Below are positions 2,473-29,033 of a stretch of DNA of 32,000 bases, in pieces. The translations under genes were made by a program, and so were the position numbers. The first letter of the stretch is position 1. Each line of letters begins with the position of its first letter. The DNA is from Mesoplasma florum L1 (GTDB lineage Bacteria > Bacillota_I > Bacilli_A > Mycoplasmatales > Mycoplasmataceae), in assembly GCF_000008305.1 (NCBI RefSeq), contig NC_006055.1, positions 761,225 through 793,224 of the forward strand. Reading direction: 5' to 3'. The notes beneath the pieces were generated by a model. The model was given only the letters and a program-made list of their open reading frames with translations. It ran no database searches and was not told where the DNA came from.

Positions 2473-3168
2473 ATGCAAAAATACATAAAAAATTTTAAAG
2501 TTTCATTTTTAAATGATGCTAACAGTTATTTAATTGTTAATGAAATATCTAAAAAAGCAATATTAATTGATGGCGGTTACAATGCAAATTTAATATTAAA
2601 TTATTTAATAAATAACAATTTAGATTTAACAGATATTTTTATTACACACTTTCACCATGATCATATTGTTGGTCTGGACTACATCTCTATACAAACAAAC
2701 GCTAATATTCATATACATGAATATGATTTCGAATATTTATTTGACGTCAATGTAAATGGAACTCAAAATGGTCAAAAAGTTGATTTTACTAATCAGAAGA
2801 TTTCATTTAAAGTATTTGATAAAAATTTAAAGTTAACAATTAATGATTTCTTAATAAATGTTATACATAAAGGCGGTCATTCTAAAGGAACTACATTTTA
2901 CGAGGTAGATAACCAATATTTATTTGTGGGAGATACGCTTTTTATTGATGGATTTGGATATCATAAAAAACTTTTTAGTGACGCAGTCAACCACCCTTTA
3001 AAGAATATGTTTGATAAGACTTGTAATGATGAAATATTTTTTGAGTCCATAAAATCTATTGGTAACGAATTTAGTGAACATTTAATTTATCCTGGTCACT
3101 GAAAAGAAGGTTTTAAAATAAAAGAGATTATTGCGAACAATAATCATCCTTTTAATAAATTAAAATAA
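2473..3168 (+). CDS. MBL-fold metallo-hydrolase (hydroxyacylglutathione hydrolase-like)
   Basis: THFHHDH (HxHxDH) motif. The track ORF ends at TGA 3100-3102. Reading it as Trp extends the frame to TAA 3166-3168 (...YPGHWKEGFKIKEIIANNNHPFNKLK). SD AAGGAAG lies upstream of ATG 2473. Confidence 0.85.
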
Positions 3169-3839: not shown

Positions 3840-5234
3840 TTATTTTTTAAATTTAGATTTTATTCATTCTATGCACATAAAACCTTCATTTAATTTTGTC
3901 GGTAATATTAAATTTAAAATTATACCTATAAATGCAGCTAGCCCTAATCCAGGTAAATTGAATGAACCTATGTCTATTCCTTCACCTAATACGCTAAGAA
4001 CAACTCCAATTACTAATACTGTAGCTGATATGAATACATTTCTCATATTCATAAAATCTGTTTTACTTGTTATCATTATTCTTACACCATTAATACTTAT
4101 AAATCCAAACATAATCATTCCAACACCACCCATTACAGGCTCTGGTAGCATTGATATTGTTTGGTTAACTGGTGCAACAAATGATAAAATTATAGCTATT
4201 ACTGCGGCTCCACCAGTTACTCACACAGATGCAACCTTTGTCATACCAATAACCGCTGTATTTTCACCATAAGTAGTGTTTGGTGGGCCACCAACTAAAC
4301 CATCAAATACTATAGAAACACCATCTGCAATAAGTGTTCTATGTATACCAGGGTCTTTTACAAAATCTTTTTTAGTTATGTATCCCATTGCTATATGATC
4401 GCCAATATGTTCTGCCATTGCAATTATTGCTAATGGTGATATTGCTAATATCGCTGGCAATATATTTTTGGCTTCTTGTTTTCATAATGGTTTGAATGAA
4501 GGATATCATTCTCACTGAGATACATCTGTTATTTTTGTTGTATCTATTAATGTTGAATTTTTCATTGAAAAATGAATAATCAAACTTAAAACGAATCCTG
4601 ATAATATTCCAATCATAACCGGAATAACTTTTGCTATCCCTTTAGCTTTCAATGTTACTATAATAGTCACCATAAAAGTAAATACTGCTATTAGTGCTGC
4701 AATTCATTGTGCATATCCCTTTGCTGAATCACTCCAACTTTTTGCACTTGTTATACCCGCATTAGCTAATGCAGAAGGTGCTGCGCTTAATCCAATTATC
4801 ATTATTAAAGGTCCTATAACAATTACAGGAAATATTTTTTCAATAAAACCAGTACCTAAATAATATACTAATATCCCAAATAATATATAAATCAGTCCAG
4901 CAACCATTATAGCCACAAATACTGAATTTCCATATGCTTGATAATTCATTCCGATCGCTGTCATATACGCAAACGAACTACCTAAATACATTGGCACTTT
5001 TGCTTTTGTTAAAGCAATATATATTAATGTTCCAACACCAGAACAAAATAATGCCATTGAAGAAGTCATTACAACCTCTTTAGCAAGTCCATTTATAATA
5101 ATGGGAACAAGCACTGTTGATCCAAACATAGCAAACACATGTTGAATAGAAAATATAAATCATTGTCCATAACTTTTTGGCTTTTCTCTCGGCTCTAAAG
5201 CAAGACCTATTTCTTCTTGTTTTAACTCTTTCAT
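3840..5234 (-). CDS. pyrP: Uracil/xanthine permease, NCS2 family (464 aa)
   Basis: Track ORFs 3864-4151, 4221-4460 and 4704-5138 share one frame (their offsets are multiples of 3) and join through TGA codons. N-terminus MKELKQEEIGLALEPREKPKSYGQWFIFSIQHVFAMFGSTVLVP is typical of UraA/PyrP. SD GAAAGAGGGG lies before ATG 5234. The apparent stop at 3864 is TGA; the true TAA is at 3840-3842. Confidence 0.85.
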
Positions 5235-5253: not shown

Positions 5254-5289
5254 TACAAAAAAAATAATCGTCTATAAAAGACGATTATT
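5254..5289 (-). terminator. Intrinsic terminator/attenuator hairpin 29 nt upstream of the pyrP start
   Basis: Perfect 11-bp stem aataatcgtct (5263-5273) with agacgattatt (5279-5289) and loop ataaa. On the minus strand a run of eight T follows (complement of the A-run at 5255-5262). Confidence 0.75.
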
Positions 5290-5356
5290 TGGTTGTTAAA
5301 AACTTGTTTTCGATTATTGGTGGATTTTTTAAAAAATGTTTAATTAATTTTTTCAT
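5285..5356 (-). CDS. Candidate 23-aa leader peptide MKKLIKHFLKNPPIIENKFLTTK
   Basis: GGAGGTG, 6 nt spacer, then ATG (5356). The TAA stop (5285-5287) lies inside the 5' arm of the terminator hairpin. It was too short for the ORF track. Confidence 0.4.
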   Translation of the reverse strand: MKKLIKHFLKNPPIIENKFLTTK

Positions 5357-5386
5357 AAAAAACACCTCCAACAAATCTTAAAATTT

Positions 5387-5392
5387 ATTATA
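5387..5392 (-). promoter_or_regulatory. Candidate -10 box (TATAAT) for the leader-pyrP transcript
   Basis: Exact TATAAT on the minus strand, about 18 nt upstream of the GGAGG of the leader ORF and downstream of the ygjP-like stop. No convincing -35 box. Confidence 0.3.
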
Positions 5393-10542: not shown

Positions 10543-11250
10543 TTAGTTAGATTCAACAGCAGCATCTAAAGCAATTTCAACCATTTGCATAAAATTGTTT
10601 TGTCTTTCTTCGGCTGTCGTAACCTCTTTTGTTACCAAGTTATCTGATATTGTTAATAAACATGCAGCTTGTTTTTTAGCTTTTATTGCATTTGCAAATA
10701 AAGCAACAGATTCCATTTCAACAACATCTAAATTGTTTTCTTTTACAAATTCAGTAATATCATCATGACGGTAAAATACATCTGCTGAATGTGCTCTTCC
10801 AGTTAATGTTTTAATTTTTTTATCTTTAGCAATTTTTTCAATCAATGAATAAAGTTTATCTCCTGCTTTAATAACTTTATCATCAATATTTGCTGCTAAT
10901 TTAGCATAGTTACTATCTCCATATGCTTCTTTTACATTGTAAACATCATAAACTTTGATTTCTTCTTTGTAACTTCCAGCTGAACCAATTCTAATAATGT
11001 TTTCTACATTATAAAAATTGAATAGCTCATATGAATATATTCCAATACTTGGGCAGCCCATTCCGCTTCCTGCTATTGTTACTTGTATACCTTTATATGT
11101 TCCTGTGTACATGAACATATTTCTAACTTCGTTAACTAACTTAACATTTTCTAAATATGTTTCAGCAATTTTCTTAGCTCTTAATGGGTCTCCTGGCATT
11201 AAAACAGTTTTTGCAATATCTTCTTTTTTTGCACTAATGTGTGGTGTCAT
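10543..11250 (-). CDS. deoD: Purine nucleoside phosphorylase, DeoD type (235 aa)
   Basis: Intact track ORF. MTPHISAKKEDIAKTVLMPGDPLRAKKIAE...GSGMGCPS...EMESVALF is the characteristic hexameric PNP/DeoD sequence. SD AGAGGAA. TAA stop. Confidence 0.95.
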   Translation of the reverse strand: MTPHISAKKEDIAKTVLMPGDPLRAKKIAETYLENVKLVNEVRNMFMYTGTYKGIQVTIAGSGMGCPSIGIYSYELFNFYNVENIIRIGSAGSYKEEIKVYDVYNVKEAYGDSNYAKLAANIDDKVIKAGDKLYSLIEKIAKDKKIKTLTGRAHSADVFYRHDDITEFVKENNLDVVEMESVALFANAIKAKKQAACLLTISDNLVTKEVTTAEERQNNFMQMVEIALDAAVESN

Positions 11251-11278
11251 AATAATTCCTCTTTTTTCTAATATTATT

Positions 11279-12178
11279 TTATCTTAAAGTTTTATCAAAT
11301 GGTACACCACTTGCTTGTGGCGGTGATGATCATTTTGATGCAATAACCATTACAACAATTGACATGATGAATGGAAGTGCTCTTGGCAATGAGTTTCATC
11401 CCGTAATTCTTTGACCTATACTAAACATTATTGAAAATATTATACAGAACATAACAATTAGGCTCACTCTTCATTGACCAATTATCATAATAGCTAATGC
11501 AATAAACCCTAATCCTTGAACACTTCCATTAAAATTTTGAAGTGATTGGGTAACAACAAACATTGTTCCTGCTAAACCAGCTATAGCACCTGAAATAATT
11601 ATACAAACAAATCTATATCTATTAACTTTAACACCTGCTGCATCTAAAGCTTGTGGGTTTTCCCCAGCAGCTATATGCCTTGTACCTACTTTTGTAAAAG
11701 TAAAATATAAACCTATTGTAACAGTTACTAGCATTGTAAATATGGCATAAGCAATAAAGTAATTTAATGATATTAGCTTAGGGCTTAGCGAACCTAAAAT
11801 AGTTCCACCAGTTCCGAATCCTTGAATATGAACAATAAATAATGCAATACCTTGAGCTAATAAATTAATTACTGTACCAGAAATAATTTGATCTGTTTTT
11901 AATTTTAAAACCATTAATGTTTGTAACAATGAAAATAAACCTGCAACAACCATTGAGAATAGCGCACCAATTAATAAGTATAAGACATGTAAGTCTTCAA
12001 CGTTATTTGATGTTTTTTTAACCATAAAGCAAAATGACACGTATGCCAAAGCCCCGATTGTCATAAAACCTTCAATCCCAAGGTTTACAACCCCTGATCT
12101 TTCAGAAAACATTCCTGATATAGCGGCTAATGTGAAAACAACAAAAAATCCTAACGCTAAACTAAATATTGCTTCCAT
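11279..12178 (-). CDS. Nucleoside/sugar ABC transporter permease 2 (YufQ/NupQ/RnsD-like, 299 aa)
   Basis: Track ORF 11471-12178 (SERSGVVNLGIEGFMTIGAL motif) ends at a TGA. My codon-by-codon extension reaches TAA 11279-11281. SD GGAGG lies upstream of ATG 12178. Confidence 0.88.
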
Positions 12179-14000
12179 AAATTTTTACAACCTCCATTTG
12201 TTTTTCTAGTAGATCGATTTTTAATTTTCTAATTTTTAATTTTTTAAATGTTCTAGAACCTTTTTTTGCTTCTAACTCTTTTATTTCTTTTTTATAAATT
12301 AGTTTTAAATCATTTAAATATGTTTTTGCTTCTTGTTTTGTTGATGCAAAATTATTTTTAAAATATTTTATTTGCGACTCTTGCTTATTAATTAAAGAAG
12401 CAGCTTTTAATTCTAACTTATTTTTCTTAGCTATTAATTTTTCTTGTTCTTTAATATTTGAATTTGATAAAGATTCTTTTATATTTTGTATTTCAGATTC
12501 TATTGAAACAACCTGATCCAAAATAGGAAATGTTGTAGAATTATATTTACCTTCATAAACTTTTTTCAAACCTTTAATTGAATGTTCATTATATTTATCT
12601 AGCTCTTTATTTATAAATAAGTGTTTTTCCAATTTTAAATCTTTTATTTTATTTTTAATTTTTGAAATTTGGAATGCTTTATTTTCTTTATACTCATTTG
12701 TTAGACTGTTTAATTCATCTCTTAAAATTTCAAGATTTTCTGACTTATTTTGTATTTGTTTTTTCAACTCTTTTATTTTTAATTTTTCATTTGTTGAATC
12801 TAAATTCAAAATAAGGATATTTTTTTCTTTTTTCAATTCTTTAATATCAGAATTTATAATTTCAATTTCAGTTTTAAATTTTGGATCTCTAATTTTATGA
12901 ATAATAATATTTACATAATTAGAAATATTTATTTTCATTAATAATAGATACATAGTTGAGAACAATATTATTATTCCAAATAATAAATCTGATGTTTCTG
13001 AAGGAAGTCCCATATATTGAGGTGAATTCATAGTTAATTGAATTCCATCTTTTAAAACAGCTCACAATATTGCAACTGGTATTATTCCCAAGAAGTTATT
13101 AAATGCAACTAATGCAATTGGTATACCATCAAATCCTAATAAAGGCATAATGTCATTTGTTACAGATATATTACTTTTTAAACCAAAGTAATAAAAGAAT
13201 CCTGCGGCCGATATAAAAACCCCTTGTAAGGCTGTTACACCAATAATAAATGAGTTTGTTTTTATACCTGCATATTTAGCTGCTGTAGATTGAGTTCCAA
13301 CAACTTTATATTTATAACCAACTGTTGTAGTTTCACAAACAACAAATACCAATACTATTGAAACTAGAGCAAAGATAATTGCAAATACTCACAACTGTGA
13401 TCCAAATACTTCAGGTAAATTTGGTGAGTTTAATTGAGTATCAAATTTAATAAATAAAACGTATTTAAGTAAATATCACAATATTCAGTTTATAACTATT
13501 GAAGTTGCAACTTCATGAATATTGAATAAAACTTTTAATATCCCAGTAAGTGATGAAACTATTGCACCTGATACTATAAAAATTAGAAATAATAAAATTC
13601 CATATCCACCAGGTAAATTAGAGAAATCAGAACCACCTGTTACAGCATTCAAGAATAGATATGTTATTAATAAACCACCTATCGCTTGACCACTACCTCC
13701 CATATTAAACAGTTTTATTCTAAAACCTAATGCTAATCCAAGACCTAAAAGTATAAATACAGCTAATAATATAACTGTCCCTTCTGGTTCAACTGGTGAA
13801 GTAAAAGGTTTAATTAAACTACTAAAAATAAAACCAAACCCATTCATACCAAAGCAATATAAAAATATAATTCCACAAAGCAATCCTAATATAATTGAAA
13901 TGAATGATACTTTGACATAAGAAGTTTTTGTTTTAAAAGTGGTTGATTTAATATATGCTATTGATTTTGTTTTAAATTTTCATTGATTAATTTTTCTCAT
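12162..14000 (-). CDS. Nucleoside/sugar ABC transporter permease 1 (YufP/NupP/RnsC-like) with 257-aa C-terminal coiled-coil extension (612 aa)
   Basis: Track ORFs 13485-13883, 13062-13352 and 12162-13031 share one frame (offsets are multiples of 3). I translated the 13031-13064 junction and it contains only a TGA. ATG 14000 lies 3 nt after the ATPase stop. The TM core is about 355 aa (LFNMGGSGQAIGG motif). It is followed by a K/E/N-rich tail ending at TAG 12162-12164. Confidence 0.85.
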
Positions 14001-14003
14001 AAA

Positions 14004-15539
14004 TTACTCCACCACCGATGAAACCATCATCTCTCCTAATTTTTCCCTTGTCGCATTTTTACCTGAAATTTCTCCAACTATTTGACCTGAATTTAAAACT
14101 AAAATGCGATCTGATAGTTGCAATATTTCTGATAACTCATATGAAATTAATAAAATAGCTTTTCCTTCTTCTTTTGCTTTTAATATTTCTGAATGAATAA
14201 ATTCAATTGAACCCACATCTAAACCTCTTGTTGGCTGAAATATTATTATGAAATTGTTGTCTCTTGAAAGTTCACGGCCAATTATCATTTTTTGTTGGTT
14301 ACCACCTGATAGTTGTCTAGCTATCGCAAACCCTGCATCAGCATTTCTAACATCAAATTTACTAATTATTTTTTGTGTATGAGTTTGCATTGCAGTTTTG
14401 TTTATAAAACCATGCTTACTATATTTCTTAGTTGAAATATCTTGAAGTGCAACATTAGTAATTAAGTTTGCGTCTAAAACTAAACCAAATTTATGTCTAT
14501 CTTCTGGGATAAACCCCATTTTATGAACATTATATCTTTTGCTTATTGATTCATGAGTAATGTTTTTATCATTGACATATATTTTTCCACTATCAACTTT
14601 AGTCATTCCACTTAATGCTTCAGCCAATTCTATTTGTCCATTCCCTTCAACACCAGCTATTCCCAAAATTTCTCCGGCTTTGATTGTCGTTGAAAAATTC
14701 TTTAAACCTAAAACTTTGTTATTACTATGTTTTTTTACATTTAAATTCTTAATAACAATTAAGTCTTCATTGTTATTTTGTTTATGAGTGTTTTTTATTT
14801 CAATTATTTTTCTTCCAACCATGGCTTCTGCTAATTTGCTTGCAGAAGTTTTCTTAACATCAAAAGTTCCAACATAATGTCCTTTACGGATTATGGTTGC
14901 TCTGTCTGCAACTTCTTTAATTTCTGCCATTTTATGTGTTATTAAAATTATTGTTTTTCCCATGCCTTTTAATTCTTTTATCACTTTTAAAAGACCATCT
15001 ATTTCTGATGGTGTTAGAACAGCTGTTGGTTCATCAAAAACCATTATCTCAGCTTTTCTGTAAAGAATTTTTAATATTTCTACTCTTTGTTTCATTCCTA
15101 CAGAAATATCTTTAACCTTGGCATTTAAATCAACTTCAAGATTATATTCCTTCATTATTGAAGTTAAATCTTCAATGATTTTTTTCTTATTAATTATTTG
15201 TTTATACTGAGTTTCTTCAGAACCTAAAATTATGTTCTTTCAAACAGGAAATATATCGACCAATTTAAAATGTTGGTGAACCATTCCTATTCCTAATTTA
15301 GTTGCTTTTACCGGCGAAGATATTATTTCTTCTTTACCGTTTATAAATATATTTCCCTCTGTTGGTTCATAAATCCCAAACAAGATTGACATTAATGTAG
15401 ATTTACCTGCACCATTCTCGCCCATTAAAGCATGTACTTCACCTTTTTTGACATCTAAATTAATGTTTTTATTGGCAATGATTTTTTTATTGAAAATCAT
15501 TGAAATATTTTTCATTTCTACAGCATTAATATTTTTCAT
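14004..15539 (-). CDS. ABC transporter ATP-binding protein, duplicated ATPase (YufO/NupO/RnsA-like, 511 aa)
   Basis: Track ORFs 15240-15539 (Walker A GENGAGKST) and 14004-15155 (LSGGNQQK signature, second P-loop GVEGNGQ) are in frame across a TGA. SD AAAGGAGAA. TAA stop at 14004-14006. Confidence 0.93.
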
Positions 15540-15548
15540 GATTCTCCT

Positions 15549-16922
15549 TTACTCATTAATTTTTTTTGTACTTTTGTTAAGTTCGTTTAGTATAGTATCA
15601 GCGTAATCTTTAATTGGTTCTTGCGCGATTATAGTTCCTGTTGAAGGTATTGTTCCATTGATATATTTAGAAAATAATGATTTTGAAGCCTCTGTCAGAG
15701 CTTCTGCACTAAAGTATTTTTTAATTTTAATAGCTAAATCTTCATCTAAAAGATTTGATCCTCCATAAGACATTGTTCCGTTAACTCAAACATCAGTGCC
15801 TGTTCAAAGTTCTTTGTCACCTATGTTTACATCCACAAACTCTGATTTATTATCAGTTATAACTTCTTTTGTTATTTGAATTTTATCTTTATAACCTTCA
15901 TCCACTTTTTTTAAAATATCTGGGTATTGTTCATTATTCATTCATTCCGGAGTGTGAGCCAAAGAAACTATTGCTGCATTTTTTAAATCTTTCTCTGCTG
16001 AAGTAATAAACCTATTTTGAGCATCTTTCCCATATGATTCTGCTTGATTTGTATCCACTCCTATCACTTTTCAAGATGTATCATAACTAAGCGCATCAGA
16101 AGTTTGAGGACCCGCAACAGGCATTAAAACATTTGGCTTAATTGATTTTGAGGTGTCTCTTAAATTATCTAATACTAGTTTTGATTGACCTATAAGGAAA
16201 CTATTTGAAAATCATGTTGTATCATCTTTAGACTTCGGTCAACCTGTTTGAGCTTTTGTAACAGTTACATTTCTAGTTGCTTCAGGGATATCAAAATGAT
16301 TTAAAAATTCTGTATCTTTTGCTAAATAATTATAAACTTCTATCGAAGCCAAGTATCCAACAATAAAGTTATCAACTGATGCTGGATTAGAAACTCCACC
16401 ATAAGCACCTAGTGATAGTGTATTATTTGTATAATTTTCGTTTTTTAATGAATATATTATTGATGACATTCCAGCGTAGAATCCAGAAACATCTCCCCTA
16501 AACACAACTCCTATTTCATTATTTGCTGCGCTATTTGAATCTAATATTATTGTAGATCCAGAATTTTTCATAACTTCTGCGGCTTGGTGTTCACCTTCAC
16601 CAGGCATTGCATGGTGAAAACCTGGAAGTAAAAGTGTTTTTGCATTGTTGCTTTCAGCAGTTTTATACGCTCTCTTCATTGTTTTTGGTGCTGTTGACTC
16701 AGGTTGTATGTATGCGATTTTTTGGTTTATTCCCAAAATTTCTTGAACAAACTCTGTTCCAGCTTCGTATGTTGATTGATTGAAAGATTTATCATCTACT
16801 TTACCTGAATCGGTAATTAAATAGATTTCACCAAAGTGTTTTTCTGTACCGCAAGAAATTACTGTAGTGGCACTAGTGCTTATTATTGTAGTACTCAATA
16901 AAGCTAATAATAGTTTTTTCAT
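15549..16922 (-). CDS. BMP-family ABC substrate-binding lipoprotein (PnrA/YufN/RnsB-like, 457 aa)
   Basis: Signal peptide plus lipobox MKKLLLALLSTTIISTSATTVISC-G. Track ORFs 16239-16922 and 15549-15773 are in frame (offset 690) and bridged by TGA codons. SD AGAAGGAG lies before ATG 16922. Confidence 0.88.
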
Positions 16923-16940: not shown

Positions 16941-16975
16941 AAAATAAAAAAGGTTTCTTATTAACTAAAAAACCT
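16941..16975 (-). terminator. Expression-platform terminator of the riboswitch
   Basis: Minus-strand AGGTTTTTT (16967-16975) pairs with AAGAAACCT (16951-16959), 9 bp including one G.U, with a 7-nt loop. TTTTTTATTTT follows. It lies between the aptamer and the SD of the lipoprotein gene. Confidence 0.7.
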
Positions 16976-16980
16976 CTGCG

Positions 16981-17041
16981 CTTATAGTCTTTGGATGGGT
17001 CCTAAGGCAGGTCGACAACCCGTTATGTTGTCATGTATAAG
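16981..17041 (-). promoter_or_regulatory. Purine-riboswitch-fold aptamer (guanine/2'-deoxyguanosine class)
   Basis: Minus strand: CTTATA-CAT-GACAAC-ATAACGG-GTTGTC-GACCTGC-CTTAGGA-CCCA-TCCAAAG-AC-TATAAG. P1 is 6 bp, P2 is 6 bp with a 7-nt L2, and P3 is 7 positions with one A.A and a 4-nt L3. The GG of L2 is complementary to the CC of L3. J3/1 carries the specificity C. It sits in the 5' UTR of a nucleoside uptake/deoD operon. Confidence 0.8.
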
Positions 17042-17066
17042 TTTTTTTTATTCAATTGTTTGAAAT

Positions 17067-17072
17067 ATTATA
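17067..17072 (-). promoter_or_regulatory. Candidate -10 box (TATAAT) for the riboswitch/nucleoside operon
   Basis: Exact TATAAT on the minus strand, about 25 nt upstream of the aptamer P1 and downstream of the preceding terminator. The -35 box is weak. Confidence 0.4.
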
Positions 17073-17132: not shown

Positions 17133-18458
17133 TTATTTTTTAATTTCTTTTTTGACTTTTGTTAAACCTGTTCATTTACCTTTTGACATATTTTCTTTTA
17201 AATGTTTATTGGCTTTGAATTTAACTGTATTTGACGCAGGAATATCAATTGTTTCACCTGTTGATGGGTTAATACCTTTTTTAGCTTCCTTGTGTATTTT
17301 TGTTAGTTTTCCAAAATTTGAAATTAAAACTTCTTCATTATTTATAATTGCATTGCTCATGATTTCAAAAGCACTATCAACTACTTCTTTAACAGATTTT
17401 TTGCTAAATTCTGAATGAGTTTCTTCTAACTTAATTAAAAGATCTTTTTTAGAAACTTGATTGTAGTGTTTTTTAATAACATATTTTGATTCAGTTTTAG
17501 CTGTTGCTGCTACTTTAGTTTCTTCAACTTTAACTTCTTCAACTTTTTTAGCTACTGGTTTTTTAGCTACTGGTTTTTTAGCAACTACTTTAGCTTCTTC
17601 AACTTTTTTAGCCGCTGGTTTTTTAGCCGCTGGTTTTTTAGCAACTACTTTAGCTTCTTCAACTTTAGCTTCTTCAACTTTTTTAGCCGCTGGTTTTTTA
17701 GCTACTGGTTTTTTAGCAACTACTTTAGCTTCTTCAACTTTTTTAGCTGCCGGTTTTTTAGCTACTGGTTTTTTAGCAACTACTTTAGCTTCTTCAACTT
17801 TTTTAGCTGCCGGTTTTTTAGCTACTGGTTTTTTAGCAACTACTTTAGCTTCTTCAACTTTAACTTCTTCAACTTTAACTTCTTCAACTTTTTTAGCTAC
17901 TGGTTTTTTTACTTTTTTCTTAACTGGTTGTTTTGCTACAATTTCTTCTTCTAATTTTTCTTCTAATTCAATTGCTTCTTGTTTAATTTCTTCTTTAGTA
18001 ATTTCTTTAGTTTCTTCAATAGCAGTTGTTGTTCCTTTTTCTGAAAGAATCTTGTTAATTTTATTTTCTTTTACAAAACTCAATACTATTGAAACTACTA
18101 AAAAGATGATTCCAACAAGAGCTATTCAGTTAATTAATAAATCTCAAAAAATTGGCAACAAGAATGTACTATATGTTTCTGTTGTTCCAACAGTTGCAAC
18201 TAATTTGAATTGAGCAAATGATTTGAATCCCATTGGACCTGCTAAAAAATGACTTAGACCTTTATCTGTAAATCACACTGCATTTATGTGTTTACTTTCT
18301 ATTAATCCAGAGCCTGCAATTGTTTGTGCTCATTGTGATGTTCCATTTGTAGCTTGGTTTATAAGTTTAAATGCAAATATTAAAGCTATAAATAAAACTA
18401 AAAGAAATATTAAAGCAATGGTTCTTGTGTGCTTTTTATTTTTCATTTCGATTGACAT
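17133..18458 (-). CDS. Membrane-anchored HU/IHF-fold DNA-binding protein with lysine-rich tandem repeats (441 aa)
   Basis: The M of track ORF 17172-18083 is a TTG and its stop is a TGA. In code 4 the frame runs from ATG 18458 (SD AGGAGG) to TAA 17133-17135. Order of parts: two hydrophobic spans (TIALIFLLVLFIALIFAF; WIALVGIIFLVVSIVL), an acidic linker, (VEEAKVVAKKPxAKKPxAKK)x5, then the HU domain ...NFGKLTKIHKEAKKGINPSTGETIDIPASNTVKFKANKHLKE. Confidence 0.8.
17514..17905. repeat. In-frame tandem repeat array (60-bp units plus 15-bp sub-units) inside the HU-like gene
   Basis: 17701-17760 and 17761-17820 are identical, and the identity continues to about 17860. Earlier units (about 17544, 17604, 17679) differ by a few substitutions. 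15-bp tttaRcttcttcaac units flank the array. Confidence 0.95.
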
Positions 18459-28923: not shown

Positions 28924-28945
28924 ATTTTAATTATAAACAAAAAAA

Positions 28946-29020
28946 CCGTGATACAAGACACATTCCCTTATAGCTGCTACCTTCCGGTCCTGACTCATTC
29001 GGGCGTAATCTTTATCACGG
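28946..29020 (-). ncRNA. ffs: Signal recognition particle RNA (small 4.5S-type)
   Basis: Minus strand: CCGTGATAAAGATTACGCCCGAATGAGTCAGGACCGGAAGGTAGCAGCTATAAGGGAATGTGTCTTGTATCACGG. A single long hairpin closed by CCGTGATA/TATCACGG, with the conserved domain IV GTCAGG-(A)CC-GGAA tetraloop-GG-(T)AGCAGC. A T-run follows it. Confidence 0.92.
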
Positions 29021-29027
29021 CAATATT

Positions 29028-29033
29028 ATTATA
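29028..29033 (-). promoter_or_regulatory. Candidate -10 box (TATAAT) for ffs
   Basis: Exact TATAAT on the minus strand, 7 nt upstream of the first base of the SRP RNA hairpin. Confidence 0.5.

Follow-up and report, generated by a model that had tools for sequence, protein, structure and literature searches.

The 5' untranslated region (UTR) of the mfl669-mfl665 operon of Mesoplasma florum L1 contains a real riboswitch of the rare 2'-deoxyguanosine (2'-dG)-type purine family, belonging to the M. florum family RF01510. It lies on the minus strand of a 32,000-nucleotide (nt) stretch of the genome (GCF_000008305.1, contig NC_006055.1, positions 761,225 to 793,224), which we call the window. We consider it likely that this RF01510 variant acts as a transcription-termination OFF switch under kinetic control. 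The element is known as a class already and almost certainly also as an individual; the 2'-dG riboswitch class was reportedly described in M. florum by Kim et al. in 2007. A literature search for the labels I-B, II-A and II-B and for the aptamer sequence gave no match. The 2'-dG-I class was listed with four examples, all in M. florum (McCown 2017).

Family membership, transcription start and conservation

When the window was searched with Rfam cmscan, the segment at 17042-16980 on the minus strand matched RF01510 (2dG-I, M. florum) over the whole model (positions 1-63 of 63), with a score of 73.7 bits and an E-value of 2.3e-14, compared to a gathering score of 51 bits. Within clan CL00123 the best family was RF01510, and not the guanine family RF00167 (gathering score 37 bits). 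An earlier note on this DNA, made from the letters alone, had proposed a purine-riboswitch architecture and had judged it closer to the M. florum 2'-dG variants than to the xpt guanine aptamer; the covariance models agree on both points. At gathering thresholds, the whole window yielded two matches, the aptamer and a signal recognition particle (SRP) RNA, and no second purine-class aptamer was found in the 32 kb with Rfam at E-values up to 1. A degenerate pattern of the aptamer core matched once in the window, with 0.00 matches expected from 100 shuffles.

The leader is laid out as follows, in the helices (P), loops (L) and joining strands (J) of a three-way junction. All features are on the minus strand and were read from the sequence unless another source is given:

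17072-17067: -10 box TATAAT (also Matteau 2020 Dataset EV1, L1 778290-778296)
17062: transcription start site (TSS), nucleotide C (gTSS from 5' rapid amplification of cDNA ends (5'-RACE), L1 778285-778286, 277 read starts per million (RSPM), assigned to peg.671/mfl669)
17047-17039: proposed antiterminator P strand AAAAAACUU, comprising the 5' A-run and the first 3 nt of the P1 5' strand (predicted)
17042-16980: aptamer, RF01510 2dG-I family (cmscan, full-length match)
17042-17036 and 16986-16980: P1, ACUUAUA/UAUAAGC
17035-17033: J1/2, CAU
17032-17027 and 17019-17014: P2, GACAAC/GUUGUC
17026-17020: L2, AUAACGG, 7 nt
17013-17007: J2/3, GACCUGC
17010-17003: 5' half CUGCCUUA of an alternative helix, from J2/3 and the P3 5' strand (predicted, ligand-free)
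17009: U at the sugar-edge position, equivalent to xpt U51 and Mfl-IA C58, 5' of the G that pairs with J1/2 C 17035 (alignments)
17006-17000 and 16995-16989: P3, CUUAGGA/UCCAAAG, with one internal A-A mismatch
16999-16996: L3, CCCA, 4 nt
16988-16987: J3/1, AC
16987: C equivalent to xpt C74 and Mfl-IA C80, the Watson-Crick partner of a guanine-type ligand (Rfam alignment)
16984-16976: 3' half UAAGCGCAG of the alternative helix, from the P1 3' strand and linker (predicted)
16975-16966 and 16960-16951: terminator, with T arm AGGUUUUUUA, loop GUUAA and H arm UAAGAAACCU (sequence and folding)
16950-16941: U-tract UUUUUAUUUU
16933-16928: Shine-Dalgarno (SD) sequence AAGGAG of mfl669 (kept in orthologues)
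16922: ATG of mfl669

The promoter box, the three helices with their loops and junctions, the terminator with its U-run, the SD sequence and the guanine-type C in front of the P1 3' strand had all been named in the earlier note and are present; only the length given for the terminator stem, 9 bp, has to be revised, to 10 bp extendable to 12. The end of the window falls at 761224 + 32000 = 793224, which we take to be the length of the L1 chromosome, making the window its last 32 kb. The last TSS in the tables of Matteau et al. 2020 is at 793208, which fits a chromosome end at 793224 (PMC7745072), and three gene ends in the same tables give one constant offset, so that window coordinates plus 761224 are L1 coordinates. 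The window has a G+C content of 27%, and its genes are open only with TGA read as tryptophan (Table-4 open reading frames (ORFs)). Logan assemblies match it at 100% identity along 17 kb.

Transcription starts 20 nt ahead of the 5' end of the aptamer and yields a 5' UTR of 140 nt (transcription unit TU_380). A TSS downstream of the aptamer had been named beforehand as an outcome that would speak against a riboswitch; the 5'-RACE TSS at 17062 is upstream of it. The location in an M. florum 5' UTR, downstream of a mapped TSS, is one feature of RF01510, and the short loops, a 7-nt L2 (AUAAnGG) and a 4-nt L3 (CCnA), are another. At the junction, the pair C 17035-G 17008 is present as the ceiling pair, of the C31-G59 type of I-A (the 2'-dG-I riboswitch of the ribonucleotide reductase operon), in place of U22-A52 of guanine-I, the class of the Bacillus subtilis xpt-pbuX riboswitch (RF00167). 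By alignment, A 17034, G 17013 and C 17007 correspond to the A32-G53-C60 triple of I-A, and the J3/1 C at 16987 is invariant in 9/9 aligned aptamers. The guanine-I core is absent, given J2/3 GACCUGC, the C-G ceiling pair and the 4-nt L3; of the guanine-I features, only the C74 and U51 equivalents are kept. The aptamer also lacks the features of 2'-dG-II, having a J3/1 of AC only and A 17036-U 16986 as the top pair of P1.

Orthologous loci were found through homologues of the BMP-family protein encoded by mfl669. Besides L1, seven genomes had RF01510 matches of 65-78 bits at the same position ahead of the orthologous operon: M. grammopterae (76.5 bits), M. tabanidae (77.7 bits; locus L013, 6882-6944), M. 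entomophilum (72.5 bits), M. melaleucae (68.4 bits), M. chauliocola (two copies, 65.3 and 65.8 bits; locus L016, 1505-1568 and 6864-6927), CP022508, which is labelled M. florum (two copies, 65.3 and 68.9 bits; locus L019, 1500-1563 and 6864-6927), and Entomoplasma ellychniae (65.9 bits). With RF01510 leaders in these further genomes, 2'-dG-I is evidently more widespread in the Entomoplasmatales than M. florum alone. In E. ellychniae (L017, 2859-3003), the aptamer ahead of bmp has the J2/3 sequence GUCCUGC. In M. chauliocola and CP022508, bmp has been relocated to a position after deoD together with an aptamer copy of its own, whose J2/3 is the almost xpt-like GUUUCUGC; the other copy, with GACCUGC, stands ahead of an ORF of 60-62 amino acids (aa) and the ATPase operon. 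This ORF may be what is left of the original bmp. A degenerate-pattern scan of a genome set in which M. florum is not a separate representative found only two sites, both in M. grammopterae (the orthologue and an I-A-like copy), the pattern being too strict for the other variants.

Covariation was scored on nine aptamers, two of them I-A sequences, using the Rfam structure with 21 pairs. In P1-P3, 94.7% of the cells were paired and 11/21 pairs were altered on both sides. The score was reached by 0/500 shuffles, and controls in which the structure was slid along the alignment were 35-48% paired. The fold of the aptamer thus has support that does not depend on the Rfam model. RNAalifold on six orthologous leaders recovered both the aptamer and the terminator. 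The stems of the terminators differ in sequence and still pair, as in GGGGU6A/UA3GAACCUC and GGAAGU6/A6CUUCC in orthologues, compared to AGG/CCU here. The leader hairpin is worth about -9 to -11 kcal/mol but contains only 2 G-C pairs, the reason why a simple terminator scan missed it.

These data bear on whether the leader is a decaying relic, an aptamer-like sequence that neither binds a ligand nor regulates, leaving expression to the promoter alone. Such decay could explain the A-A mismatch within P3 of M. florum, the mismatches in two orthologues and a terminator with only 2 G-C pairs that two terminator predictors did not call. It fits poorly, however, with full-length model matches in seven genomes, with junction nucleotides that, other than the A-C-C-U stretch, are invariant across species whose flanks have diverged, and with compensatory changes in P1-P3 and the terminator. 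The aptamer was, moreover, duplicated along with the relocated bmp in M. chauliocola and CP022508. We regard a relic as very improbable.

Expression platform

In the mechanism that we propose, a guanine-type ligand, most probably 2'-dG or a related guanine nucleoside and possibly guanine too, would pair with C 16987 in J3/1, and its binding would lock the three-way junction together with P1. This would leave the T strand AGGUUUUUUA free for the H strand, and the hairpin with its U-tract would stop transcription ahead of mfl669. In the ligand-free state, J2/3 and the P3 5' strand would capture the P1 3' strand, while the freed 5' segment AAAAAACUU would pair with the T strand, forming a helix, P-T, that delays the terminator so that the polymerase reads through.

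Folding of transcripts of increasing length, without ligand, gave a minimum-free-energy (MFE) series consistent with this scheme. At 84 nt, the MFE structure was the aptamer. At 87-90 nt it contained the alternative helix CUGCCUUA/UAAGCGCAG, which remained in the MFE structure from 87 nt up. At 93-108 nt the P-T helix appeared, pairing AAAAAACUU (17047-17039) with AGGUUUUUU (16975-16967), and from 111 nt, when the H strand has been made, the terminator took over. For the 102-nt transcript, the P-T state was at -18.5 kcal/mol and the enforced aptamer at -12.3 kcal/mol, a gap of about what the loop-loop contact and the binding of a sub-micromolar ligand could together compensate. The predicted antiterminator is thus made of the 5' A-run and the P1 CUU, paired with the terminator 5' arm AGGUUUUUU. 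The earlier note had seen no convincing antiterminator pairing, and its doubt now gives way to this candidate, put forward from folding. The predicted P-T duplex has 9 bp and -6.4 kcal/mol in M. florum; when M. grammopterae, M. tabanidae and M. entomophilum are included, the range is -6.3 to -6.7 kcal/mol. In all, 4/5 orthologues are predicted to form this pairing too.

The scheme has a precedent in I-A, in which the antiterminator is a helix, PT, formed by the 5' aptamer strand P and the switching strand T, the latter pairing otherwise with strand H (Schwalbe group, PMC5838219). As a control, the same folding procedure applied to the I-A sequence returned its experimentally established PT helix. 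Since the terminator in our leader is thermodynamically favored in both states, regulation has to be kinetic, a regime that would mirror the one described for I-A.

Three other pairings were considered as antiterminators and rejected. The CUGCCUUA/UAAGCGCAG helix makes no contact with the T strand and coexists with the terminator, and was therefore treated as an anti-P1 element. It is kept in M. tabanidae, with one U-A changed to C-G, and in M. entomophilum, with a U-G, and is absent in M. melaleucae. Between the P1 3' strand (GACUAUAAG) and the T strand (UUUUUUAGUU) there are 8 weak pairs and a mismatch, an arrangement not kept in M. tabanidae, and a pairing of GACCU with AGGUU has only 5 bp.

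Helix P-T consumes the CUU of P1 (17041-17039), so that it and a ligand-stabilized P1 are mutually exclusive, which makes an OFF switch the likelier arrangement. The opposite direction would require that the ligand stabilize an extended P1 that holds the T strand, or that it free the SD sequence in a translational mechanism, and the operon would then be induced when guanine nucleosides are abundant. A formed P1 does not keep the 5' A-run from pairing with the U6 of the T strand; with P1 closed, however, only six A-U pairs across an 8-nt bulge are left. The predicted P-T of M. chauliocola stacks on a P1-like helix, but that helix is P1 in a shifted register, in which J1/2 and J3/1 are lost, and so belongs to the ligand-free structure. 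The CCUUUU of the H strand is complementary to AGAAGG at the SD, yet the SD lies outside the terminator and is unsequestered in the predicted OFF state. Finally, 2'-dG-III works as an ON switch on an enzyme that degrades nucleosides, a nucleoside hydrolase, whereas the homologous I-A, with the same strand layout, is OFF by experiment. An ON switch or translational control is therefore unlikely in our estimate.

Several observations weigh against a 2'-dG-type OFF switch of this design. In the full-length leader, the fold that contains the terminator is the most stable in both states. The P-T duplex is weak in M. melaleucae, at -2.7 kcal/mol, and the helix is mostly A-U; with the low G+C content of this genome, the complementarity could be partly compositional. 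Matteau et al. give neither a terminator nor a riboswitch note for the mfl669 leader (PMC7745072). No convincing terminator was found after the aptamer of E. ellychniae, in which the expression platform may differ, possibly working by translational control. Two further points concern the ligand: the sugar-edge nucleotide 17009 is U and not the cytosine of the 2'-dG-selective class (C58 in I-A), and J2/3 has 5 nt between its closing G and C, compared to 6 in I-A, with the choice of the nucleotide counted as deleted being a matter of alignment judgement.

Operon, ligand and relatives

The five genes of TU_380, transcribed from the TSS at 17062 (Matteau et al. 2020 tables), are all on the minus strand:

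15549-16922: mfl669, BMP-family substrate-binding lipoprotein, 457 aa, with 100% identity to the M. florum L1 protein (PF02608; KEGG bmpA)
14004-15539: mfl668, ATP-binding cassette (ABC) ATPase with two ABC_tran domains (KEGG nupA, K23537)
12162-14000: mfl667, permease, BPD_transp_2 (KEGG nupB)
11279-12178: mfl666, permease, BPD_transp_2 (KEGG nupC)
10543-11250: mfl665, deoD, with which TU_380 ends, a purine nucleoside phosphorylase (TIGR00107)

The deoD product scored 263 bits against the TIGR00107 equivalog (cut-off 232) and is identical in several M. florum genomes. For the transporter, orthology with the general nucleoside transport system (KEGG nupABC/bmpA) suggests nucleosides as the substrate. 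In NCBIfam, the BMP protein fell into no family, and the ATPase and permease matched sugar or B6 transporters below the cut-off, so that the nucleoside assignment rests on KEGG nupABC/bmpA and on analogy with the homologous rnsABCD of JCVI-syn3A, which is taken to import all ribo- and deoxyribonucleosides.

The earlier note had placed the whole operon under the switch. The five-gene unit was confirmed, but deoD does not depend wholly on the leader: it has a TSS of its own at 11269 on the minus strand (TU_378, 130 RSPM, 19-nt 5' UTR), with a -10 box TAAAAT at 11276-11281, and the phosphorylase is thus only partly under leader control. A weaker internal TSS gives TU_379. In rich medium, expression along the operon from mfl669 to mfl665 was 119, 356, 365, 574 and 960 fragments per kilobase per million (FPKM). 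The 119 FPKM of mfl669 compares with 630 for uniform coverage, despite a fairly strong TSS of 277 RSPM, and is compatible with attenuation in rich medium, although this is only a hint.

For the ligand, the nucleotide at 17009 is central. The sugar-edge U was found in 8/9 transporter-leader aptamers (6/7 genomes), with C only in M. tabanidae. The C58U change in I-A caused an 83-fold loss in 2'-dG affinity, and this pyrimidine has been reported to be critical for selectivity between nucleobase and nucleoside. In 2'-dG-III, where the sugar-edge position is likewise a U, guanine, guanosine and 2'-dG are bound equally, and the change of U39 to C abolishes guanine binding. Kim et al. (2007) reportedly found that some M. 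florum variants still bind guanine or adenine. With the sugar-edge U and the shorter J2/3, 2'-dG selectivity is not asserted here, and sensing of guanine or of a mixture is possible. The earlier note had likewise held back from naming the ligand, a caution that these two features justify. We give about an even chance to 2'-dG or guanine nucleosides and a smaller, still substantial one to guanine or promiscuous binding, the rest going to some other ligand.

The smaller share describes the same OFF platform responding to guanine (or hypoxanthine), or an aptamer promiscuous for guanine, guanosine and 2'-dG. It draws on U 17009, which is shared with guanine-I and with the promiscuous 2'-dG-III, and on the C50-U51 dinucleotide of xpt, which is kept when J2/3 is read from its 3' end. 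The orthologous operon of the Spiroplasma endosymbiont of Cantharis rufa has the canonical guanine core GUUUCUAC, the bmp copy of M. chauliocola (GUUUCUGC) differs from the xpt J2/3 only by a swap of the ceiling pair, and the phosphorylase encoded in the operon makes guanine. These points are set against the covariance models, the best of which is 2dG-I, and against the pocket itself, where C-G replaces the U22-A52 ceiling pair as in I-A, the counterpart of U47 is missing and A-C stands in for U48-U49, removing the lid over N9 of the guanine pocket. The RF01510 consensus in Rfam itself has a short J2/3, the four 2'-dG-I members counted by McCown 2017 are in M. florum, and the M. tabanidae orthologue does have C at the sugar-edge position. 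A ligand of the guanine or mixed kind is accordingly, in our judgement, a real contender that falls somewhat short of an even chance.

Comparison with known riboswitches places the window aptamer closest to I-A (dGsw or mfl-riboswitch, PDB 3SKI), which comes from the same genome and the same Rfam family. The two have identical P1 (ACUUAUA/UAUAAG) and J3/1 (AC) and share the 7-nt L2 AUAAYGG, the 4-nt L3 CCNA, the C-G ceiling pair and a terminator platform, for which the strand order P-A-T-H is predicted in the window, with a 5' flank and P1 5' strand complementary to the T strand. They differ in J2/3 (G-ACCUG-C in the window, G-ACCCCG-C in I-A) and in the sequences of P2 and P3. The platform in the window is also shorter, with a linker of 4-7 nt compared to about 30 and a P-T of 9 bp compared to about 15, and its operon serves nucleoside import and phosphorolysis, whereas that of I-A serves ribonucleotide reduction; the affinity and selectivity of I-A are not transferable.

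With guanine-I, the window aptamer shares the three-way junction, C74-type recognition, the sugar-edge U and C50-U51, as well as OFF regulation by termination, which is our proposal for the window, and feedback on purine and nucleoside uptake. Unlike in guanine-I, U22-A52 is replaced by C-G, U47 is lost, U48-U49 has become A-C, and the 7-nt loop behind the canonical base quadruples gives way to an L3 of 4 nt. The nucleoside transporter gene nupG/yxjA reportedly carries a guanine-I riboswitch (Mandal 2003; Johansen 2003). The Bacillus class 2'-dG-III, which regulates a purine nucleoside hydrolase, resembles the window element as a guanine-riboswitch derivative with a sugar-edge U and a purine-nucleoside-cleaving enzyme; it binds 2'-dG, guanosine and guanine about equally, behavior that we consider possible for the window aptamer as well. 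It differs in A37/A38 and three inserted junction nucleotides, in its canonical long loops, in being an ON switch and in occurring in Bacillus rather than in Mollicutes. The metagenomic class 2'-dG-II (Bacteroidetes; env1) shares the purine fold and binds 2'-dG through C74 and a sugar pocket in J2/3, and its residue 48 is often A, as is A 17012 in the window. It has a 2-nt insertion in J3/1, a G-C pair in P1 next to the junction and C51, where the window has J3/1 AC, A-U and U.

Ahead of the bmp operon of the Spiroplasma endosymbiont of Cantharis rufa (L018, 2814-2909), the aptamer is a guanine-I member by its features (RF00167, 40.8 bits), with the core GUUUCUAC, yet it has the short L2 (AUAAAGG) and L3 (CCGA) of the M. 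florum style. In S. cantharicola (L020, same position), the leader is 97% identical but scores under the RF00167 threshold, its aptamer differing by two substitutions. Lined up, the J2/3 sequences run from GUUUCUAC in Spiroplasma through GUUUCUGC in the bmp copy of M. chauliocola (with a C-G ceiling), GACCUGC, which is the common Mesoplasma form, and GAUCCGC in M. tabanidae to GACCCCGC in I-A. On a single orthologous operon, these variants look like a graded series from guanine-I to 2'-dG-I. A bolder reading, which we hold only tentatively and think rather doubtful, is that the Mesoplasma/Entomoplasma transporter leaders form a distinct specificity subclass of RF01510, with a short J2/3 and a sugar-edge U, that senses guanine or guanine plus guanosine and 2'-dG. 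The stepwise path from guanine-I to 2'-dG-I would then be preserved, and U in M. florum as against C in M. tabanidae would amount to a naturally occurring specificity switch.

Other features of the window and significance of the leader

A second leader in the window, at 5256-5391 on the minus strand, lies upstream of the xanthine/uracil permease gene at 3840-5234, which has a 145-nt 5' UTR. Matteau et al. flagged this UTR with the remark 'Possible new riboswitch?' (PMC7745072). No Rfam match to it was found at E-values up to 1. The leader has an SD sequence, GGAGG, and a conserved 23-codon ORF, MKKLIKHFLKNPPIIENKFLTTK, with its ATG at 5356. This ORF ends in a TAA that overlaps with the 5' arm of the terminator hairpin UAAUCGUCU-UUUAU-AGACGAUUA, after which comes U8. 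In M. chauliocola, the 23-codon ORF is kept, and a change of TAA...UUA to TAG...CUA preserves both stop and stem. This looks like a ribosome-mediated leader-peptide attenuator rather than a riboswitch, perhaps pyrBI-like and UTP-sensitive.

Three further features of the window were noted:

17133-18458, minus strand: mfl670, 441 aa, with an N-terminal membrane segment, a long low-complexity stretch of KKPVAKK/VEEAKV repeats and, at the C-terminus, a DNA-binding domain of the HU/IHF type (PF00216); strains and species differ in the size of the protein (343 to 441 aa), presumably via repeat number
28933-29028, minus strand: bacterial small SRP RNA (RF00169, 49.2 bits), whose 3' hairpin is the terminator listed downstream of peg.682 in the Matteau tables
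2473-3168, plus strand: 231-aa protein of the metallo-beta-lactamase fold, one of whose Pfam matches is PF23023 (Anti-Pycsar Apyc1), a family of phage nucleases that act on cyclic nucleotides; this protein is chromosomal in a near-minimal bacterium and conserved across strains

As a discovery, the mfl669 leader adds little, the class being known in M. florum and present in Rfam. Its value is that of a case study, in which variants of the binding pocket form a natural series on one and the same operon. Should the change between U and C at the sugar-edge position alter specificity, the series would be a ready-made test of the shift from base to nucleoside recognition, and the leaders would reveal what a near-minimal cell senses in order to throttle its nucleoside uptake.

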